A stretch of DNA of 64,000 nucleotides from a virus: the IMG/VR virus record IMGVR_UViG_3300018495_000103. One strand, 5' to 3'. Shown here in pieces: positions 38,570 to 47,280 of this stretch. A program made the translations under genes and the position numbers. Under the pieces are notes generated by a model. It did not search any database and was not told the origin of the DNA. It worked only from the letters and a program-made list of their open reading frames with translations. The stretch's first letter is position 1; the number at the start of each line of letters is the position of its first letter.

Positions 38570-38790
38570 TATTTTACCTCCTTCTCTGGAATTAATACGA
38601 ACATATAGCCCGTACATTTAGGAGGTTCACCCTCCTTAATCATTTTTGCAAGACTTTTTTCAAGGGATTCGATAGTTGTTTGCATATATTCATGACCCTT
38701 TTCGTAGCCTGTAATCGCTGCGAAAGGAGGGTTATTAATTGGCATTTTCATACCATCTATAAAAATATATCCCTTAATTCCAAACATCAA
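38569..38790 (-). CDS. hypothetical protein (73 aa)
   Basis: ORF track. TAA stop. Confidence 0.4.
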   Translation of the reverse strand: MMFGIKGYIFIDGMKMPINNPPFAAITGYEKGHEYMQTTIESLEKSLAKMIKEGEPPKCTGYMFVLIPEKEVK

Positions 38791-39365
38791 CCTTTCGCCT
38801 CGCTTAAATAGTTTCTAATTTCTTCTCGATAATTATAAACATATCGAGGAACAAGTTTTTCAATCATCGGGTCGCTATTAGGCATCTGAAAAGCCTGGCG
38901 AACCAATGTTGCACTAATACCTTCGAATCTATCAAGAAATTTAAATCGAAGTAACCATCTTTCATCTTGGGCAAACCAACCGAGCATAATACGGGGGTCA
39001 TCACTGTAATAGATAGTCATATCAGAATCTTTGGTTTTACTAAACATCTTGATATAAAGATATCGGCCCCATGCGTGGCTATTGTCAGCTTCATCAGTCA
39101 TATCAGCTAAAGGAAAAATATGAATATATTTCATTTGTTCTGTTGTAAAATGTTCGTGAAGAGAGCCTTCCAAAAGCATGATACGAAAATCAATGGGTAG
39201 AGGATTGCGGACAGTGCCGCTCTTATCGGCAGAGCCAACGAAGATATAAAGGTCGCAATTATTTGCGGCGCAATCTTCATAAGCCTTTTGAACCATATTT
39301 AAATGTCCTCTATGAAAAGGCTGTGCTCTAAATAAAATAACACCTGTCATAATAATTCTCCTCAC
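38787..39365 (-). CDS. nicotinamide-nucleotide adenylyltransferase (NadM/NadR-type NMNAT)
   Basis: Nucleotidyltransferase (H/T)xGH motif FHRGH near the N-terminus and ISATLVR (ISSTxIR) motif near the C-terminus. TGA stop. Confidence 0.75.
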   Translation of the reverse strand: MRRIIMTGVILFRAQPFHRGHLNMVQKAYEDCAANNCDLYIFVGSADKSGTVRNPLPIDFRIMLLEGSLHEHFTTEQMKYIHIFPLADMTDEADNSHAWGRYLYIKMFSKTKDSDMTIYYSDDPRIMLGWFAQDERWLLRFKFLDRFEGISATLVRQAFQMPNSDPMIEKLVPRYVYNYREEIRNYLSEAKG

Positions 39366-39679
39366 TTAATCACTAAATCTTTTGCTTCTTCTTGAGTGAT
39401 ACCGAAATAGTCTTCAAAAATTTCCATATCACCAGGGTCACAAGCCCCAGAACAGATACATTTTCCCTCATGCAACACCCAATACCACATACCATCGGGG
39501 TATTTAATTAAATGCTCTATTAAAGCAAAAAAATCTTTAATATTGGGACAACCATATACAGCAACTAAACCCTCACCGGTAAATTCATCTGTGAAATAAA
39601 TATAAGGGTCTGCTACGACACGGTCTCGAATTTTATCTGTAAAAGCTACAATGATAGGAGCATCAATATTCACAGTCAT
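39362..39679 (-). CDS. hypothetical protein (105 aa)
   Basis: ORF track. Promoter upstream. Confidence 0.45.
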   Translation of the reverse strand: MTVNIDAPIIVAFTDKIRDRVVADPYIYFTDEFTGEGLVAVYGCPNIKDFFALIEHLIKYPDGMWYWVLHEGKCICSGACDPGDMEIFEDYFGITQEEAKDLVIK

Positions 39680-39712
39680 TTATATCAATTCCTTTCTTAA
39701 CTTTATATATAT

Positions 39713-39741
39713 ATTATAACATATTTTTTAATAAAAATCAA
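39713..39741 (-). promoter_or_regulatory. conserved promoter TTGATT-N17-TGtTATAAT
   Basis: Upstream of 39362..39679. Confidence 0.6.
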
Positions 39742-39742
39742 A

Positions 39743-39763
39743 GAGGAAGCATTAAGCTTCCTC
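39743..39763 (-). terminator. terminator hairpin (GAGGAAGC/GCTTCCTC)
   Basis: Overlaps the stop of 39752..40279. T-run follows on the minus strand. Confidence 0.5.
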
Positions 39764-45111: not shown

Positions 45112-45114
45112 ATC

Positions 45115-45633
45115 TTACTCTCCCATTTGTGCCTTGACGCAAGCATCGCCTGCAGCCATAGCTTCTTTCAGTGCCTCTTGGGCAACCTTCATATCGCAGC
45201 CCTCTTTCTTCAAGAAAGGCATCACATTCTTCATAATGACACCCTTATTACCAGAGCAGATAGAAACTGCGTTACAAACTCCCCAGTAGTTAATCATCTT
45301 GACAATTTCATCCTTGTCGTCGATAACCTTAGGAGCATACTCCAAAGCGATAGAGAGCTTCATCAGATATTCAGCCTTACGAGCCTTCAATTCTGCATCT
45401 CTCTTGGGGTCTGTTGCCCCATCGGGACAGGTATCGACCATCTCTTGGACAGTCTTCTTATACTTCAACATCACTTCATCGACAAAAGCATCTGTGATTT
45501 CTACTCTCTTTTTACCAGAGGTAGCAGCTTTGTCGATTGTGGCGACCATATCAGCCAGAGTCAAACGTCTCAGCTTATCGCCGTTTTTCAAGGCAGTTGT
45601 CATATCTGCCTTAATAGACTCATACTTATTCAT
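45115..45633 (-). CDS. GatB/YqeY-domain protein
   Basis: MNKYESIKADMTTALKNGDKLRRLTL... and C-terminal ...EIVKMINYW...MKNVMPFLKKEG..D.K.A.E.LK parallel YqeY. Confidence 0.55.
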   Translation of the reverse strand: MNKYESIKADMTTALKNGDKLRRLTLADMVATIDKAATSGKKRVEITDAFVDEVMLKYKKTVQEMVDTCPDGATDPKRDAELKARKAEYLMKLSIALEYAPKVIDDKDEIVKMINYWGVCNAVSICSGNKGVIMKNVMPFLKKEGCDMKVAQEALKEAMAAGDACVKAQMGE

Positions 45634-45651
45634 TGGAGTCTACTCCTTTCT

Positions 45652-46479
45652 TTAATGATATACAGTAATCCATTCCTTCCAGTAAGGGTCATAACCTTCG
45701 TTGAATAACTCTTCGGGGAAAATGGACTTAGTGGTATAGACATGGTCAACAAGACCATCAGTGCTGGCCATTTCACCCAAAATAATAGTCTTTTCGCAAT
45801 GGGTGACATACAGACTTACGCTCTTGGCGCCAGCAGCCTTAAGAGCTTTAGCAGAATGGTAGAAAGTACCACCACGAGAACAGATATCGTCAACGATAAG
45901 AACATTCTTATCCTTAACTGCTTCGGCGTTGATAATATCCAGGCCCTGAATCTGACCGGTCTTCCAATCTCGCTTTTTCATTCCAAAAGCGTAAGGAATA
46001 TCAAACCCACCAGAATAACGCTTCATAGCACCTTCATCGGGGAAGAAGAGTACATCAGCCTGAGCCTCAAAAATTGCATCCAGAACATAATTAGTAATGG
46101 GCATTTCTTCTACATTGTTCAGAAGGGCCAGGCTTACGTTGCTATGTGCGTCACGCACATGAACAACCTTGAAATTCAGAGAGTTGATAACTTCGCAGAA
46201 ATACTTGAGAGTGAAAACATCTTCATCAGACTTCACTCGGTCCATGCGGGCATGGGGGATGTAAGGCATTTCCAGAACAACATCGCTGTAAGAATAGACG
46301 CGGTCCAGATGGCGCTTTACGCAAATCAAAGAGAAAAGCTCTGCATCATTTTCATAATACCACTCGACCAGAATATTACCGCGAGTGTCAAATTCATCCC
46401 CATTGGGGTCAAACTTCATCAACAGAGTGCCATCGGGGAACTGACCCTGCTTAATTTCGACATTACCTACTTTAATCAT
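45652..46479 (-). CDS. prs: ribose-phosphate pyrophosphokinase-like enzyme (Prs family; PRPP synthetase or ADPR-PP synthetase)
   Basis: PRTase motif VLIVDDICSRGGTF, N-terminal Prs-like domain. GGAGG RBS. Confidence 0.75.
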   Translation of the reverse strand: MIKVGNVEIKQGQFPDGTLLMKFDPNGDEFDTRGNILVEWYYENDAELFSLICVKRHLDRVYSYSDVVLEMPYIPHARMDRVKSDEDVFTLKYFCEVINSLNFKVVHVRDAHSNVSLALLNNVEEMPITNYVLDAIFEAQADVLFFPDEGAMKRYSGGFDIPYAFGMKKRDWKTGQIQGLDIINAEAVKDKNVLIVDDICSRGGTFYHSAKALKAAGAKSVSLYVTHCEKTIILGEMASTDGLVDHVYTTKSIFPEELFNEGYDPYWKEWITVYH

Positions 46480-46689
46480 ACATTTTCCTCCATGTTTCTC
46501 CCATTCCGAGTTCTAAATCGGCACTTCCATTCCAACCGAATACTCGGAAAGCTCGTAATTTGATATATGCTTTATATCTTTTGAAATTGCCCTCGCAGTA
46601 TAGAAAAGCTGAAGGACAATATGGCAAATCTTCTTCTTTCAATTCTGAAAGCTGTTCACGCGACATTAAGCAGCTTTCTCGCAAAGAGT

Positions 46690-47280
46690 TTAGATGATGT
46701 TGACCTGGCACAGCTTCATCGCCTCCAGAGCAGTCTTGTGGCTCTCGGGGGTAACACAGGCGCAGCAATCAGCAATCACATTCACAGGAACCTCGGGCAG
46801 CGTAGCCTTAGCCAGAATGGCATTGGACATAACACAGATTCCGGTACACAGACCCATCAGAGTAACCTCTTCAACACCCAGACGCTCATTGATATCGAAC
46901 AAAATGTTCTGCAGTTCGACAGAGCCAAAAGTAGGCTTTTCAACCTTGATAGGGTTAATGTCGGTCATGGGGTAGACCTCATAAGCGTCGGCATAGGTGT
47001 CGATAACATTGATGTAAGCCTTGAACACTTCATCAACAATGGAATGACCGGCAGTGCCCTTGATGCAATGACGAACCGGCAGATTTTTACCCTCCAGGGT
47101 ATCCATGTAATTTTCGGGATGAGTATCCTTGGTGAAGATAACCACAGTATCGGGAGCTGCCATCTGCTCAATGGTCTCTGCGACCAGCGGAACGATAGCC
47201 TGCGCCTCCTTGGTGCCCAGGGAACCATCAACGAAATCCTTCTGCATATCTACGACAATAAGAACTTTCATATAATTCAT
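46690..47280 (-). CDS. pncA: nicotinamidase (isochorismatase family)
   Basis: VLIVVDMQKDFVDG..., catalytic Lys, GLCTGICV Cys motif. Confidence 0.8.
   Translation of the reverse strand: MNYMKVLIVVDMQKDFVDGSLGTKEAQAIVPLVAETIEQMAAPDTVVIFTKDTHPENYMDTLEGKNLPVRHCIKGTAGHSIVDEVFKAYINVIDTYADAYEVYPMTDINPIKVEKPTFGSVELQNILFDINERLGVEEVTLMGLCTGICVMSNAILAKATLPEVPVNVIADCCACVTPESHKTALEAMKLCQVNII

Follow-up and report, generated by a model that had tools for sequence, protein, structure and literature searches.

The NAD+ gene island

The window analysed here, a stretch of 64,000 nucleotides from the IMG/VR virus record IMGVR_UViG_3300018495_000103, contains at positions 38787-47280 a set of genes related to nicotinamide adenine dinucleotide (NAD+) metabolism, and we consider it very probable that this is an NAD+ reconstitution island built on a pair of proteins resembling the phage enzymes Adps and Namat. 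The span includes 14 open reading frames (ORFs), all on the minus strand, which are given below from the upstream end of the island:

46690-47280, minus strand: PncA-type nicotinamidase, 196 residues (Pfam Isochorismatase 3.6e-24; P. horikoshii nicotinamidase structure 3e-15)
46472-46666, minus strand: conserved ORF of 64 residues (orf64) between the PncA and Adps-like genes, with homologues at the same position in relatives
45652-46479, minus strand: Adps-like (Prs-like) protein, 275 residues, a predicted ADP-ribose pyrophosphokinase (phrog_619 8e-76)
45115-45633, minus strand: YqeY/GatB-C-like protein, 172 residues (Pfam YqeY 27.0 bits, equal to the cut-off; phrog_1460 2.4e-9)
44338-45111, minus strand: CobB-type sirtuin (Sir2), 257 residues (Pfam SIR2 9e-45; NF001752 253.7 bits, cut-off 221)
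43940-44341, minus strand: predicted lipoprotein, 133 residues, with signal peptide and LIAC lipobox
43603-43851, minus strand: orf82, a small basic protein heading the second transcription unit (83% identical copy in related contigs L089-L091)
42123-43598, minus strand: Namat-like NAMPT-family enzyme, 491 residues (phrog_448 2e-147)
41617-42123, minus strand: macro-domain protein, 168 residues, Adpp-like (phrog_335 'phosphatase' 4e-32)
40808-41614, minus strand: single-domain NadE, 268 residues, without glutaminase domain (NAD_synthase 1e-50; TIGR00552 169.6 bits, cut-off 63.65)
40280-40795, minus strand: NADAR-domain protein, 171 residues (NADAR 1.8e-32; TIGR02464 108 bits, cut-off 73.7)
39752-40279, minus strand: AAA_28 P-loop small-molecule kinase, 175 residues (Pfam AAA_28 1e-10)
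39362-39679, minus strand: orf105, absent from all related loci compared
38787-39365, minus strand: NadM/archaeal-type NMNAT, 192 residues, without Nudix domain (TIGR01527 1.6e-13, under the model cut-off)

A sequence-only reading of this DNA had described 11 genes in order across the span; profile searches uphold the family assignment of every gene that it named, and to these our map adds orf105, orf82 and the ORF of 64 residues. The Namat-like gene more likely starts at the ATG at 43598, which lies behind a ribosome-binding site, than at the GTG at 43670. NadE contains the SGGKDS motif, and a GAGIS motif, the catalytic His and a Cys4 zinc ribbon are visible in the translation of the sirtuin. 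When PncA is compared with its P. horikoshii counterpart, its segments VVDMQ, KDTHPEN, RHCI and CTGICV line up with two members of the Asp-Lys-Cys catalytic triad, namely Asp and Cys, and with the residues of the Asp/His/His metal site, and its score against the NCBIfam equivalog model is under the cut-off. The ORF of 64 residues is 61% identical to a called gene of 67 residues at the same position in L090, and 46% identical to its homologues in L001, L002 and L004. The lipoprotein has no family match in Pfam and PHROG profile scans, and a copy 58-60% identical to it occurs in L089-L091.

Clade assignment of the NAMPT-like and Prs-like proteins

Among the described phage NAD+ reconstitution pathways (NARPs), NARP1 consists of Adps and Namat (Bacillus phage SPbetaL1, E. 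coli phage Bas63 and Vibrio phage ICP1), NARP1-AP of Adps, the macro phosphatase Adpp and Namat (Vibrio phage Gary; bioRxiv 10.64898/2026.01.28.702374), and NARP2 of Nampt and Nmnat (Vibrio phage KVP40 and the layout of Ralstonia phage RSL1). The NAMPT-like protein of the island falls with Namat. Among solved structures it matches SPbetaL1 Namat (9w5x) best, with 338 bits, while human NAMPT reaches 170 bits; its identity to the SPbetaL1 enzyme is 41.6% as compared with 26-30% to Nampt, and in a neighbour-joining tree the gut clade and characterised Namat together exclude the Nampt proteins of RSL1, GAP161, Aeromonas 25 and human in 100/100 bootstraps. No second NAMPT-family gene was found in the window, where the family is present in single copy. 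It had been proposed from the sequence that the island combines both the NARP1 and the NARP2 pair, yet its one NAMPT-family gene is on the Namat side and a NARP2-type Nampt is absent from the window, leaving only the NMNAT half of the second pair, without its Nudix domain.

The Prs-like protein is 37% identical to SPbetaL1 Adps (141 bits) and matches ICP1 and Bas63-type Adps at 104-118 bits (104 bits for ICP1), whereas fragments of archaeal Prs reach 54-66 bits. It scores under every NCBIfam Prs cut-off, including TIGR01251 (83.6 bits against 113), and falls far short of the Prs equivalog models. Equivalents of the catalytic Lys (GMKKR), Arg87, His121 and Asp161 are kept, together with the DD motif; the choice of residues diagnostic of Adps follows PMC13586617, and a search of solved structures returned no Adps structure. 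On the evidence of the tree and of these scores, both proteins group with phage counter-defence enzymes and not with housekeeping ones, as the sequence-only reading had supposed. Because a Namat-clade protein occurs here with an Adps-like protein, and a macro gene directly follows the Namat-like gene, the island is classified from its sequence as a NARP1-AP-type module.

Remodelling of the Namat pocket

In the crystal structure of Namat, nicotinamide is held by Phe189, Arg192, Asp215, Ala242, Arg306, Asp13' and Tyr15', with Asp215 contributing a hydrogen bond (PMC12774641), and the D215A substitution in the SPbetaL1 enzyme reduces NAD+ output from nicotinamide 8.1-fold. In the window protein, A183, K209, S211 and S238 take the place of SPbetaL1 H187, G213, D215 and A242. 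Position 215, which is human D219, falls within a "GTDT" motif (9w5x numbering), and the four positions correspond in our residue mapping to human H191, G217, D219 and A244. In an alignment of 478 positions that covers 171 NAMPT-like genes, drawn from 177 loci and from the window, the genes divide at position 215 into an Asp class of 85 genes and a Ser/Ala class of 86 (Ser in 81, Ala in 5). The two classes are fully separated at 12 of the 478 positions, including 187, 213, 215 and 242, with 239 and 240 adjoining these, while the remaining nicotinamide, ribose-phosphate and catalytic residues are invariant in both, and the adenine-stacking equivalent of Phe392 is kept in 85 of the 86 Ser/Ala-class sequences. 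The net change is the disappearance of an acidic side chain and the gain of Lys, Arg or Asn together with Ser hydroxyls, as would be expected if the pocket were to recognise a carboxylate rather than an amide.

The same positions have been altered in human NAMPT, where D219S is listed as switching substrate affinity (Khan et al. 2006, tabulated in PMC4919578), D219A as abolishing activity, and H191R, G217R and A244M as blocking inhibitor binding (table in PMC4919578); a second review states that Asp219 defines the substrate specificity of NAMPT. Among the best 150 representatives of clusters formed at 50% identity, 99 read H-G-D-A at the four positions and 44 have Ser or Ala at 215, and in these 44 His187 is never kept and Ser stands at 242 in 42, such that the variant enzyme, as recognised by these residues, spans at least 44 clusters at 50% identity. 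In the accessible part of the isolate table of Osterman et al., Asp motifs occur approximately 680 times and "KTST" once.

[quoted passage not shown] The motif reads G-A-F-C-F-H in the window protein, followed by an insertion of 10 residues (383-392) and then V-L-T-R-D. This insertion in the clamp helix was considered as the feature linked to the presence of PncA and NadE and was ruled out, since phage Phass-1 combines a canonical clamp with an Ala pocket and PncA/NadE neighbours.

Insertions are also encountered elsewhere in the family. Many of the NAMPT/Namat cluster representatives (P0123, P0149, P0163, P0173, P0223, P0229 and others) are 800-1100 residues long and match the query in two to four separate stretches; the representatives checked by BLAST gave two to three separated matching pieces, indicating that some carry large insertions, and several tblastn matches in isolate phages likewise fall into two pieces. 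A search for fusions with partner domains was uninformative, the N-terminal extension of P0149 being an HNH/AP2 homing endonuclease.

Covariation of the pocket with PncA and NadE

The state of the pocket is closely mirrored by the neighbouring genes. Within 10 kb of the Asp-class genes neither PncA nor NadE occurs (0/85), while 76 of the 86 Ser/Ala-class genes have both as neighbours, 8 have PncA only and 2 have NadE only. All ten of these incomplete cases come from short loci, with the end of the contig lying a few kb away from Namat. In the tree, the Ser genes and two Ala lineages form one clade, sister to canonical Namat. In an independent set of 19 genome contigs the Ser state is found wherever the motif is readable, and of these contigs 12 have both neighbours, 4 are truncated and 3 lack one partner. 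Phass-1, which has an Ala pocket, carries annotated nicotinamidase, Prs and NAMPT genes one after another and has NadE close by.

All Ser/Ala-type loci are without a NadD-type enzyme, and NMNAT is found in only about one quarter of them; the window itself has neither a PncB nor a NadD homologue. Consequently, only a route through nicotinic acid adenine dinucleotide (NaAD) would close the pathway from the conserved genes alone. The sequence-only reading had treated PncA and NadE as a parallel, deamidated route, and while both genes are indeed present, their covariation with the pocket suggests that they are wired into the Adps/Namat route itself, as parts of it and not as optional extras. The gene content, clade membership, operon structure, synteny and pocket-neighbour covariation described in this study are direct observations.

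Conserved core and distribution

We retrieved 80 loci from IMG/VR with the Namat-like protein. The Prs-like gene accompanies it in all 80, PncA in 78, NadE in 72 and the macro gene in 70, the last abutting the 3' end of the Namat-like gene as it does in the window. The other members of the island are more sporadic: NADAR occurs in 36 of the 80 related loci, NMNAT in 16, Sir2 in 7 and YqeY in 6. The conserved core therefore comprises PncA, Adps-like, Namat-like, macro and NadE genes. The gene order of the island is the same in L089-L091, which are related contigs of approximately 140-200 kb, and the core genes recur in the 80 IMG/VR loci and in the 19 genome contigs, so the clustering is not due to chance. 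Close relatives of the kinase gene lie on contigs of 140-207 kb, three of which hold the whole island in the same order. In most related loci the Prs-like gene immediately precedes the Namat-like gene; in the window the YqeY, Sir2, lipoprotein and orf82 genes stand in between.

The macro protein, although part of this core, has no Pfam match. Its best NCBIfam match is DarG (2e-14, under the cut-off), and a profile of its clade matches the solved structures of BT1257 (4e-17), DarG (8e-14), Poa1p (3.5e-11) and TARG1 (1e-9). The position of DarG Lys80 (PTKKHW motif) is occupied by an invariant Gln96 in the phage macro clade and by Thr in Poa1p. We rejected the possibility that the protein is a DarG-like DNA ADP-ribosylglycohydrolase, given that the catalytic Lys of DarG and TARG1 is absent. 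The sequence-only reading had the protein as an ADP-ribose-removing domain; the macro family stands, but with the catalytic Lys replaced by an invariant Gln the accessory phosphatase Adpp of NARP1-AP is a better fit, and the protein is better read as a predicted ADP-ribose-1''-phosphate phosphatase (Adpp-like), possibly also acting as an O-acetyl-ADP-ribose deacetylase.

Relatives of the Namat-like protein lie on contigs binned with Clostridia (Acutalibacteraceae, Agathobacter, Roseburia and Lachnospiraceae) and on two isolate scaffolds, and the island belongs to a large phage (roughly 200 kb) of gut Clostridia. The five-gene core module was found in approximately 100 contigs, from phages of gut Clostridia and the bins of their hosts. 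A megablast search of the island against 50,697 phage records returned no match, and only 10 of those deposited records contain PncA, namely seven contigs from human feces, Phass-1, and Bacillus phage G in two records. With PncA so scarce among deposited phages, its association with Namat could not have come to light in isolate-based studies.

A module of PncA, Prs-like, Ser-type Namat and NadE genes is also located inside two large scaffolds, namely L183 (Ruminococcus sp. AM36-2AA, 499 kb) and L192 (Lachnospiraceae bacterium A4, 792 kb), which suggests prophages or bacterial copies and a cultivable entry point. The nearest annotated relative of the core is phage Phass-1 (L087, OQ749652), a member of a 'code 15' clade with TAG recoded, in which a suppressor tRNA and a large tRNA array adjoin the module. 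Identity between the window and L089-L091 is uneven: the kinase, YqeY, orf82 and PncA proteins are 79-85% identical, and the Namat-like proteins only 44%. The Namat-like protein of L089 has Ala at the key position, an insertion of approximately 88 residues and a longer clamp insertion. This mosaic pattern suggests that the central enzyme has been replaced or is fast-evolving.

A possible deamidated pathway and its alternatives

A potential explanation for these patterns, which we put forward tentatively and at a little under even probability, is that the core is a deamidated variant of NARP1, constituting a fourth NAD+ reconstitution pathway that runs via nicotinate and NaAD. Under this hypothesis, immune NADases would cleave NAD+ to nicotinamide and either ADP-ribose or ADP-ribose-1''-phosphate (ADPR-1''-phosphate), from which the Adpp-like macro protein would remove the 1''-phosphate to give ADP-ribose. 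The Adps-like protein would pyrophosphorylate ADP-ribose to ADP-ribose pyrophosphate (ADPR-PP), and PncA would convert nicotinamide to nicotinate and ammonia. The Namat variant, whose pocket no longer has the Asp that binds the amide but has acquired a Lys and two Ser, would join nicotinate and ADPR-PP to form NaAD, which the single-domain NadE would convert with ammonia to NAD+. PncA, the Adps-like protein, the Namat variant and NadE would in this way close a route from the products of the NADases without any host enzyme. The enzymatic activities, the use of nicotinate, the NaAD intermediate and the role against host defences are all predictions of this scheme.

Several observations weigh against the deamidated pathway, or reduce the force of the evidence for it. 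The deamidated route is dearer in ATP than NARP1, and a selective reason for the use of nicotinate is not established. The ligand-contact residues of the Prs-like protein do not differ between the Asp and the Ser/Ala classes, and so the use of ADPR-PP and that of phosphoribosyl pyrophosphate (PRPP) are not separable by sequence. In the window Namat, the clamp keeps the aromatic residue at position 3 (the Phe392 equivalent) but is interrupted by the insertion, which displaces position 7, and the equivalent of Arg40 is Met. The Adps-like and Namat-like genes of the window lie approximately 2 kb apart, in separate transcription units, with four genes and a terminator/promoter pair between them. 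The evidence from D219S concerns human NAMPT acting on PRPP and comes second-hand from reviews, and the Ala variants offer no hydrogen-bond donor at position 215. A Fisher test on the covariation gives 7e-48, but on data that are not phylogenetically independent: most Ser genes are in one clade, Phass-1 (Ala) branches apart as the only clearly separate lineage, and monophyly of the Ser/Ala genes is recovered in 7/50 bootstraps. Three of the genome contigs (L179, L191 and L196) lack one partner despite a flank of at least 8 kb. Finally, four human fecal phage contigs (L093, L094, L095 and L097) encode PncA homologues (37-53% identical), and their available flanks contain neither a Namat-like nor a Prs-like gene, which shows that phage nicotinamidases also exist outside the module.

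Alternative hypotheses differ from the deamidated pathway in the substrate that they assign to the remodelled enzyme, or in the purpose that they assign to the island. It may be that the island is a canonical NARP1-AP, rebuilding NAD+ from ADP-ribose and nicotinamide, while PncA and NadE separately assist the Preiss-Handler route of the host, which requires the PncB and NadD of the host and would serve as a back-up with no need for ADP-ribose, and that the pocket changes are neutral or otherwise used. The clade placement and the NARP1-AP layout agree with this, as do the retention of the other nicotinamide contacts and of the Phe392 equivalent, the residual PRPP activity of Namat in vitro, and the example of Bacillus phage G, which shows that phages may carry Preiss-Handler genes. 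However, the covariation of the pocket quartet with PncA and NadE (0/85 against 76/86) would be left unexplained, the D215A enzyme performs poorly with nicotinamide, and phage PncA would compete with Namat for this same substrate, for which reasons we regard the canonical arrangement as somewhat unlikely. The pocket changes would suit the use of nicotinate equally well if the Ser/Ala enzyme instead ran the Preiss-Handler reaction on a NAMPT scaffold, making nicotinic acid mononucleotide (NaMN) from nicotinate and PRPP. In that case the Prs-like protein would be a genuine PRPP synthetase, NaAD would come from host NadD or, where there is one, from the NMNAT of the phage, and NadE would act last. 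The full Prs/Adps catalytic set is kept and is compatible with ribose-5-phosphate, and the window does have an NMNAT, but the Prs-like protein resembles characterised Adps far more than it does Prs, scoring under the curated cut-offs for the latter, NadD is present in no locus and NMNAT in roughly a quarter, the conserved macro partner would have no role, and adenine-stacking Phe392 is retained almost throughout the class; we therefore consider a PRPP-based route to be distinctly improbable.

The two other alternatives concern purpose more than chemistry. Under a 'NAD-jumbo phage' model of metabolic supply only, NAD+ would be kept high for the phage ligase and sirtuin, with no link to immunity needed. 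An NAD+-dependent ligase is encoded in the same window and a sirtuin within the island, and Li et al. (2024) report gut jumbo phages that pair NAD gene clusters with this ligase (PMC11662467). Conversely, the ADP-ribose and ADPR-1''-phosphate on which Adps, Namat and Adpp depend build up mainly after NADase attack, and the sirtuin is restricted to the few related loci counted above, such that supply as the sole purpose appears unlikely, although supply and counter-defence are not mutually exclusive. Least of all do we favour a reversal of ADP-ribosylation, in which the macro and NADAR proteins would take ADP-ribose off phage DNA or proteins that DarT-like or other toxins had modified, or would process the products of the sirtuin, with the salvage enzymes recycling what is released. 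This would be in keeping with DarG as the best NCBIfam match of the macro protein, with the match of the NADAR protein to 'NADAR family anti-phage protein' (1e-18), and with the broad group to which the macro protein belongs, which includes TARG1/OARD1, an enzyme that deacetylates O-acetyl-ADP-ribose. Yet both of these NCBIfam scores are far under their cut-offs, the Lys80 of DarG is an invariant Gln, and NADAR and sirtuin are missing from most related loci while PncA, Adps, Namat and NadE are constant, and we hold this explanation to be very improbable.

Accessory proteins

Some of the sporadic genes of the island may nonetheless feed into the deamidated pathway. The NMNAT scores 50.5 bits against TIGR01527 (cut-off 181.2); its best solved structures are archaeal NMNATs (1e-8), it has the motifs PFHRGH and ISATLVR (HxGH and ISxTxxR), and it is 45% identical over the N-terminal motif to the NadM-Nudix protein of RSL1, with no NadD-type match. 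NAD+-dependent ligases release nicotinamide mononucleotide (NMN), and the Metis defence has been reported to produce it. The NMNAT would re-adenylylate NMN arising from the ligase, from Metis, or from a residual PRPP activity of the Namat variant. Sirtuins consume NAD+ and yield nicotinamide and O-acetyl-ADP-ribose, and these products could re-enter the pathway, the former via PncA and the latter via the macro protein.

The AAA_28 protein had been labelled a NadR-like nicotinamide riboside kinase in the sequence-only reading, a label that neither its sequence nor its fold supports. Its AlphaFold model (pLDDT 87.5) has thymidylate kinases (TM approximately 0.64) and other small-molecule kinases as its top Foldseek matches, and NadR is absent from the top 50. 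Copies approximately 83% identical occur at the same position in L089-L092.

Transcription units and genomic context

A highly conserved promoter-like motif, TTGATTTTTATAAAAAAATATG(A/T)TATAAT, has 18 copies in the window between positions 5721 and 62318, where chance alone would give 1.15, and every copy is on the minus strand. Three of these copies lie inside the island, each directly after a terminator-like hairpin:

47337-47360, minus strand: terminator-like hairpin ending the upstream major vault protein-like gene (10-bp stem with 6 GC pairs, then a T run); upstream boundary of the island
47306-47334, minus strand: promoter 1, TTGATT-N17-TATAAT with extended -10 TG (motif match)
43909-43937, minus strand: terminator-like hairpin closing unit 1 (13-bp stem, then a T run)
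43880-43908, minus strand: promoter 2 (motif match)
39742-39764, minus strand: terminator-like hairpin closing unit 2
39713-39741, minus strand: promoter 3 (motif match)

These features predict three transcription units, the first comprising PncA, orf64, Adps-like, YqeY, Sir2 and lipoprotein genes, the second orf82, Namat-like, macro, NadE, NADAR and AAA_28 kinase genes, and the third orf105 and NMNAT and continuing into orf73 and a metallophosphatase gene. The island promoters are, as far as their motifs indicate, sigma-70-type; the phage encodes a full sigma-70-family factor of its own (53880-54800, with regions 1.2, 2, 3 and 4). The island is probably transcribed early.

The remainder of the window is given to replication and RNA repair: besides the sigma factor, its products include topoisomerase II, a DNA polymerase, helicases, RNase H, thymidylate synthase, a Thg1-like protein and an RNA ligase. 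One further gene bears directly on NAD+, such that phage replication itself would consume this cofactor:

20347-22338, minus strand: NAD+-dependent DNA ligase (phrog_3869 1.5e-163)

No tRNA genes were found in the window, and its large ORFs are intact under the standard bacterial code. GC content rises near position 34000, from approximately 0.36-0.40 (1-34000) to approximately 0.42-0.49 (34000-64000), and the island is situated in the higher-GC half without being a discrete compositional island. The local GC peak of 0.49 is accounted for by a Band_7/flotillin-like protein of 502 residues (34118-35626, minus strand) with a long coiled coil rich in Ala, Glu and Lys, and an ORF of 564 residues on the plus strand of this higher-GC region (34001-35695) was discarded as an antisense artefact of that gene.

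Genes resembling those for RNA repair are scattered over the minus strand (36255-38617, 50632-52050, 55263-56153, 57919-58809 and 61452-61835) and include a PNK-like AAA_33 kinase, three metallophosphatases, an RNA ligase, a Thg1-like protein and a cyclic-phosphate-processing receiver domain; those at 36255-38617 keep synteny with the NAD island in L089-L092. Directly upstream of PncA lies a major vault protein (MVP) homologue of 838 residues (47373-49889, minus strand), with an MVP shoulder domain (2e-23), a Vault_3 repeat, and a match to rat MVP (2e-23) over residues 320-790 of the window protein. The same adjacency of MVP and PncA occurs in L001-L004, and L007 has MVP further upstream. Eukaryotic vaults contain the NAD-using PARP4 and the NADase domain of TEP1. 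A functional tie between the MVP homologue and the island is unlikely, however, as the gene is served by a promoter and a terminator of its own and is present in only 5 of the 80 related loci. A 2023 preprint describes MVPs in human gut phages, and NAD is never mentioned in it.

Significance and comparison with known systems

The depletion of NAD+ is among the commonest anti-phage strategies of bacteria, and to our knowledge the three published phage pathways that rebuild it all come from cultured phages of Proteobacteria and Bacilli. Our analyses suggest that a conserved and extended form of such a pathway exists in uncultured phages of gut Clostridia, with a nicotinamidase and an NAD synthetase that appear to be genetically locked to a Namat with a rebuilt pocket. 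The reaction of nicotinate with ADPR-PP to give NaAD is not known to have been described before; in the literature searched we found no paper linking Namat or NARP to nicotinamidase or NaAD, and the Namat structure paper does not mention nicotinate. If the deamidated pathway is correct, it would add one more member both to the known enzyme reactions and to the pathways of counter-defence, it would account for two accessory genes that have so far been unexplained, and a four-residue signature would sort thousands of genes now annotated "nicotinamide phosphoribosyltransferase". It would also raise the question of which host pressure favours the costlier deamidated route, for which a fast host nicotinamidase, the removal of nicotinamide, and a NaAD pool that is proof against NADases are candidates.

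The window resembles NARP1 in its Adps-type Prs-like protein and Namat-clade protein, which are adjacent in most relatives and keep their catalytic residues. It differs in the pocket, where Asp215 is replaced by Ser alongside H187A, G213K and A242S, in the clamp insertion of 10 residues and the change of Arg40 to Met, in the four genes and the terminator/promoter pair that separate the Adps-like and Namat-like genes, and in its association with PncA and NadE. With NARP1-AP it shares a macro gene of the group containing Poa1p that adjoins Namat, in agreement with the published definition, which asks for a macro-domain gene no more than two genes away from those of NARP1. However, Namat precedes macro in the window whereas the order in Gary is Adps, Adpp, Namat, the macro protein is nearer in sequence to BT1257 and DarG than to Poa1p, and PncA and NadE are additional.

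The likeness to NARP2 is limited to the NadM-type NMNAT, with moderate scores, whereas a NARP2-clade Nampt and a Nudix domain are lacking in the window; Osterman et al. found no phage with both NARP1 and NARP2. NARP3, known from phage Bas30, consists of a PnuC transporter and a bifunctional NadR-like enzyme (PMC13464706). The NMNAT and the AAA_28-family P-loop kinase of the window are similarly close together, but as separate genes and with a kinase fold nearest to thymidylate kinases and not to the NadR kinase domain, and a scan of 46 ORFs of the window, including all those of 127 residues or more in the non-overlapping gene map (strand artefacts excepted), found no PnuC. Bacillus phage G, like the window, has PncA (gp275) and NadE (gp283) in one cluster, yet true PncB (gp277) and NadD (gp281) are present there, and in the window the Adps-like and Namat-like genes stand in their place.

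The sequence-only reading regarded the island as unusually complete, and while it does hold many NAD genes, clusters of NAD genes in gut jumbo phages were already published in 2024. These 'NAD-jumbo phages' of animal guts (Li et al. 2024, PMC11662467) have their genes for NAD synthesis grouped together and also encode a ligase that depends on NAD+, and the window likewise combines an NAD gene cluster with such a ligase nearby. Their genes are mapped in that paper to canonical KEGG pathways, the terms NARP, 'ribose-phosphate', macro and NADAR are absent from its text, and pocket residues are not discussed in its accessible part. The closest parallel to the pocket itself is the D219S mutant of human NAMPT, which has the same substitution at the same position as the phage variant; this mutant, however, is engineered and uses PRPP, whereas the phage variants are natural, have three further pocket changes, and are predicted to use ADPR-PP.

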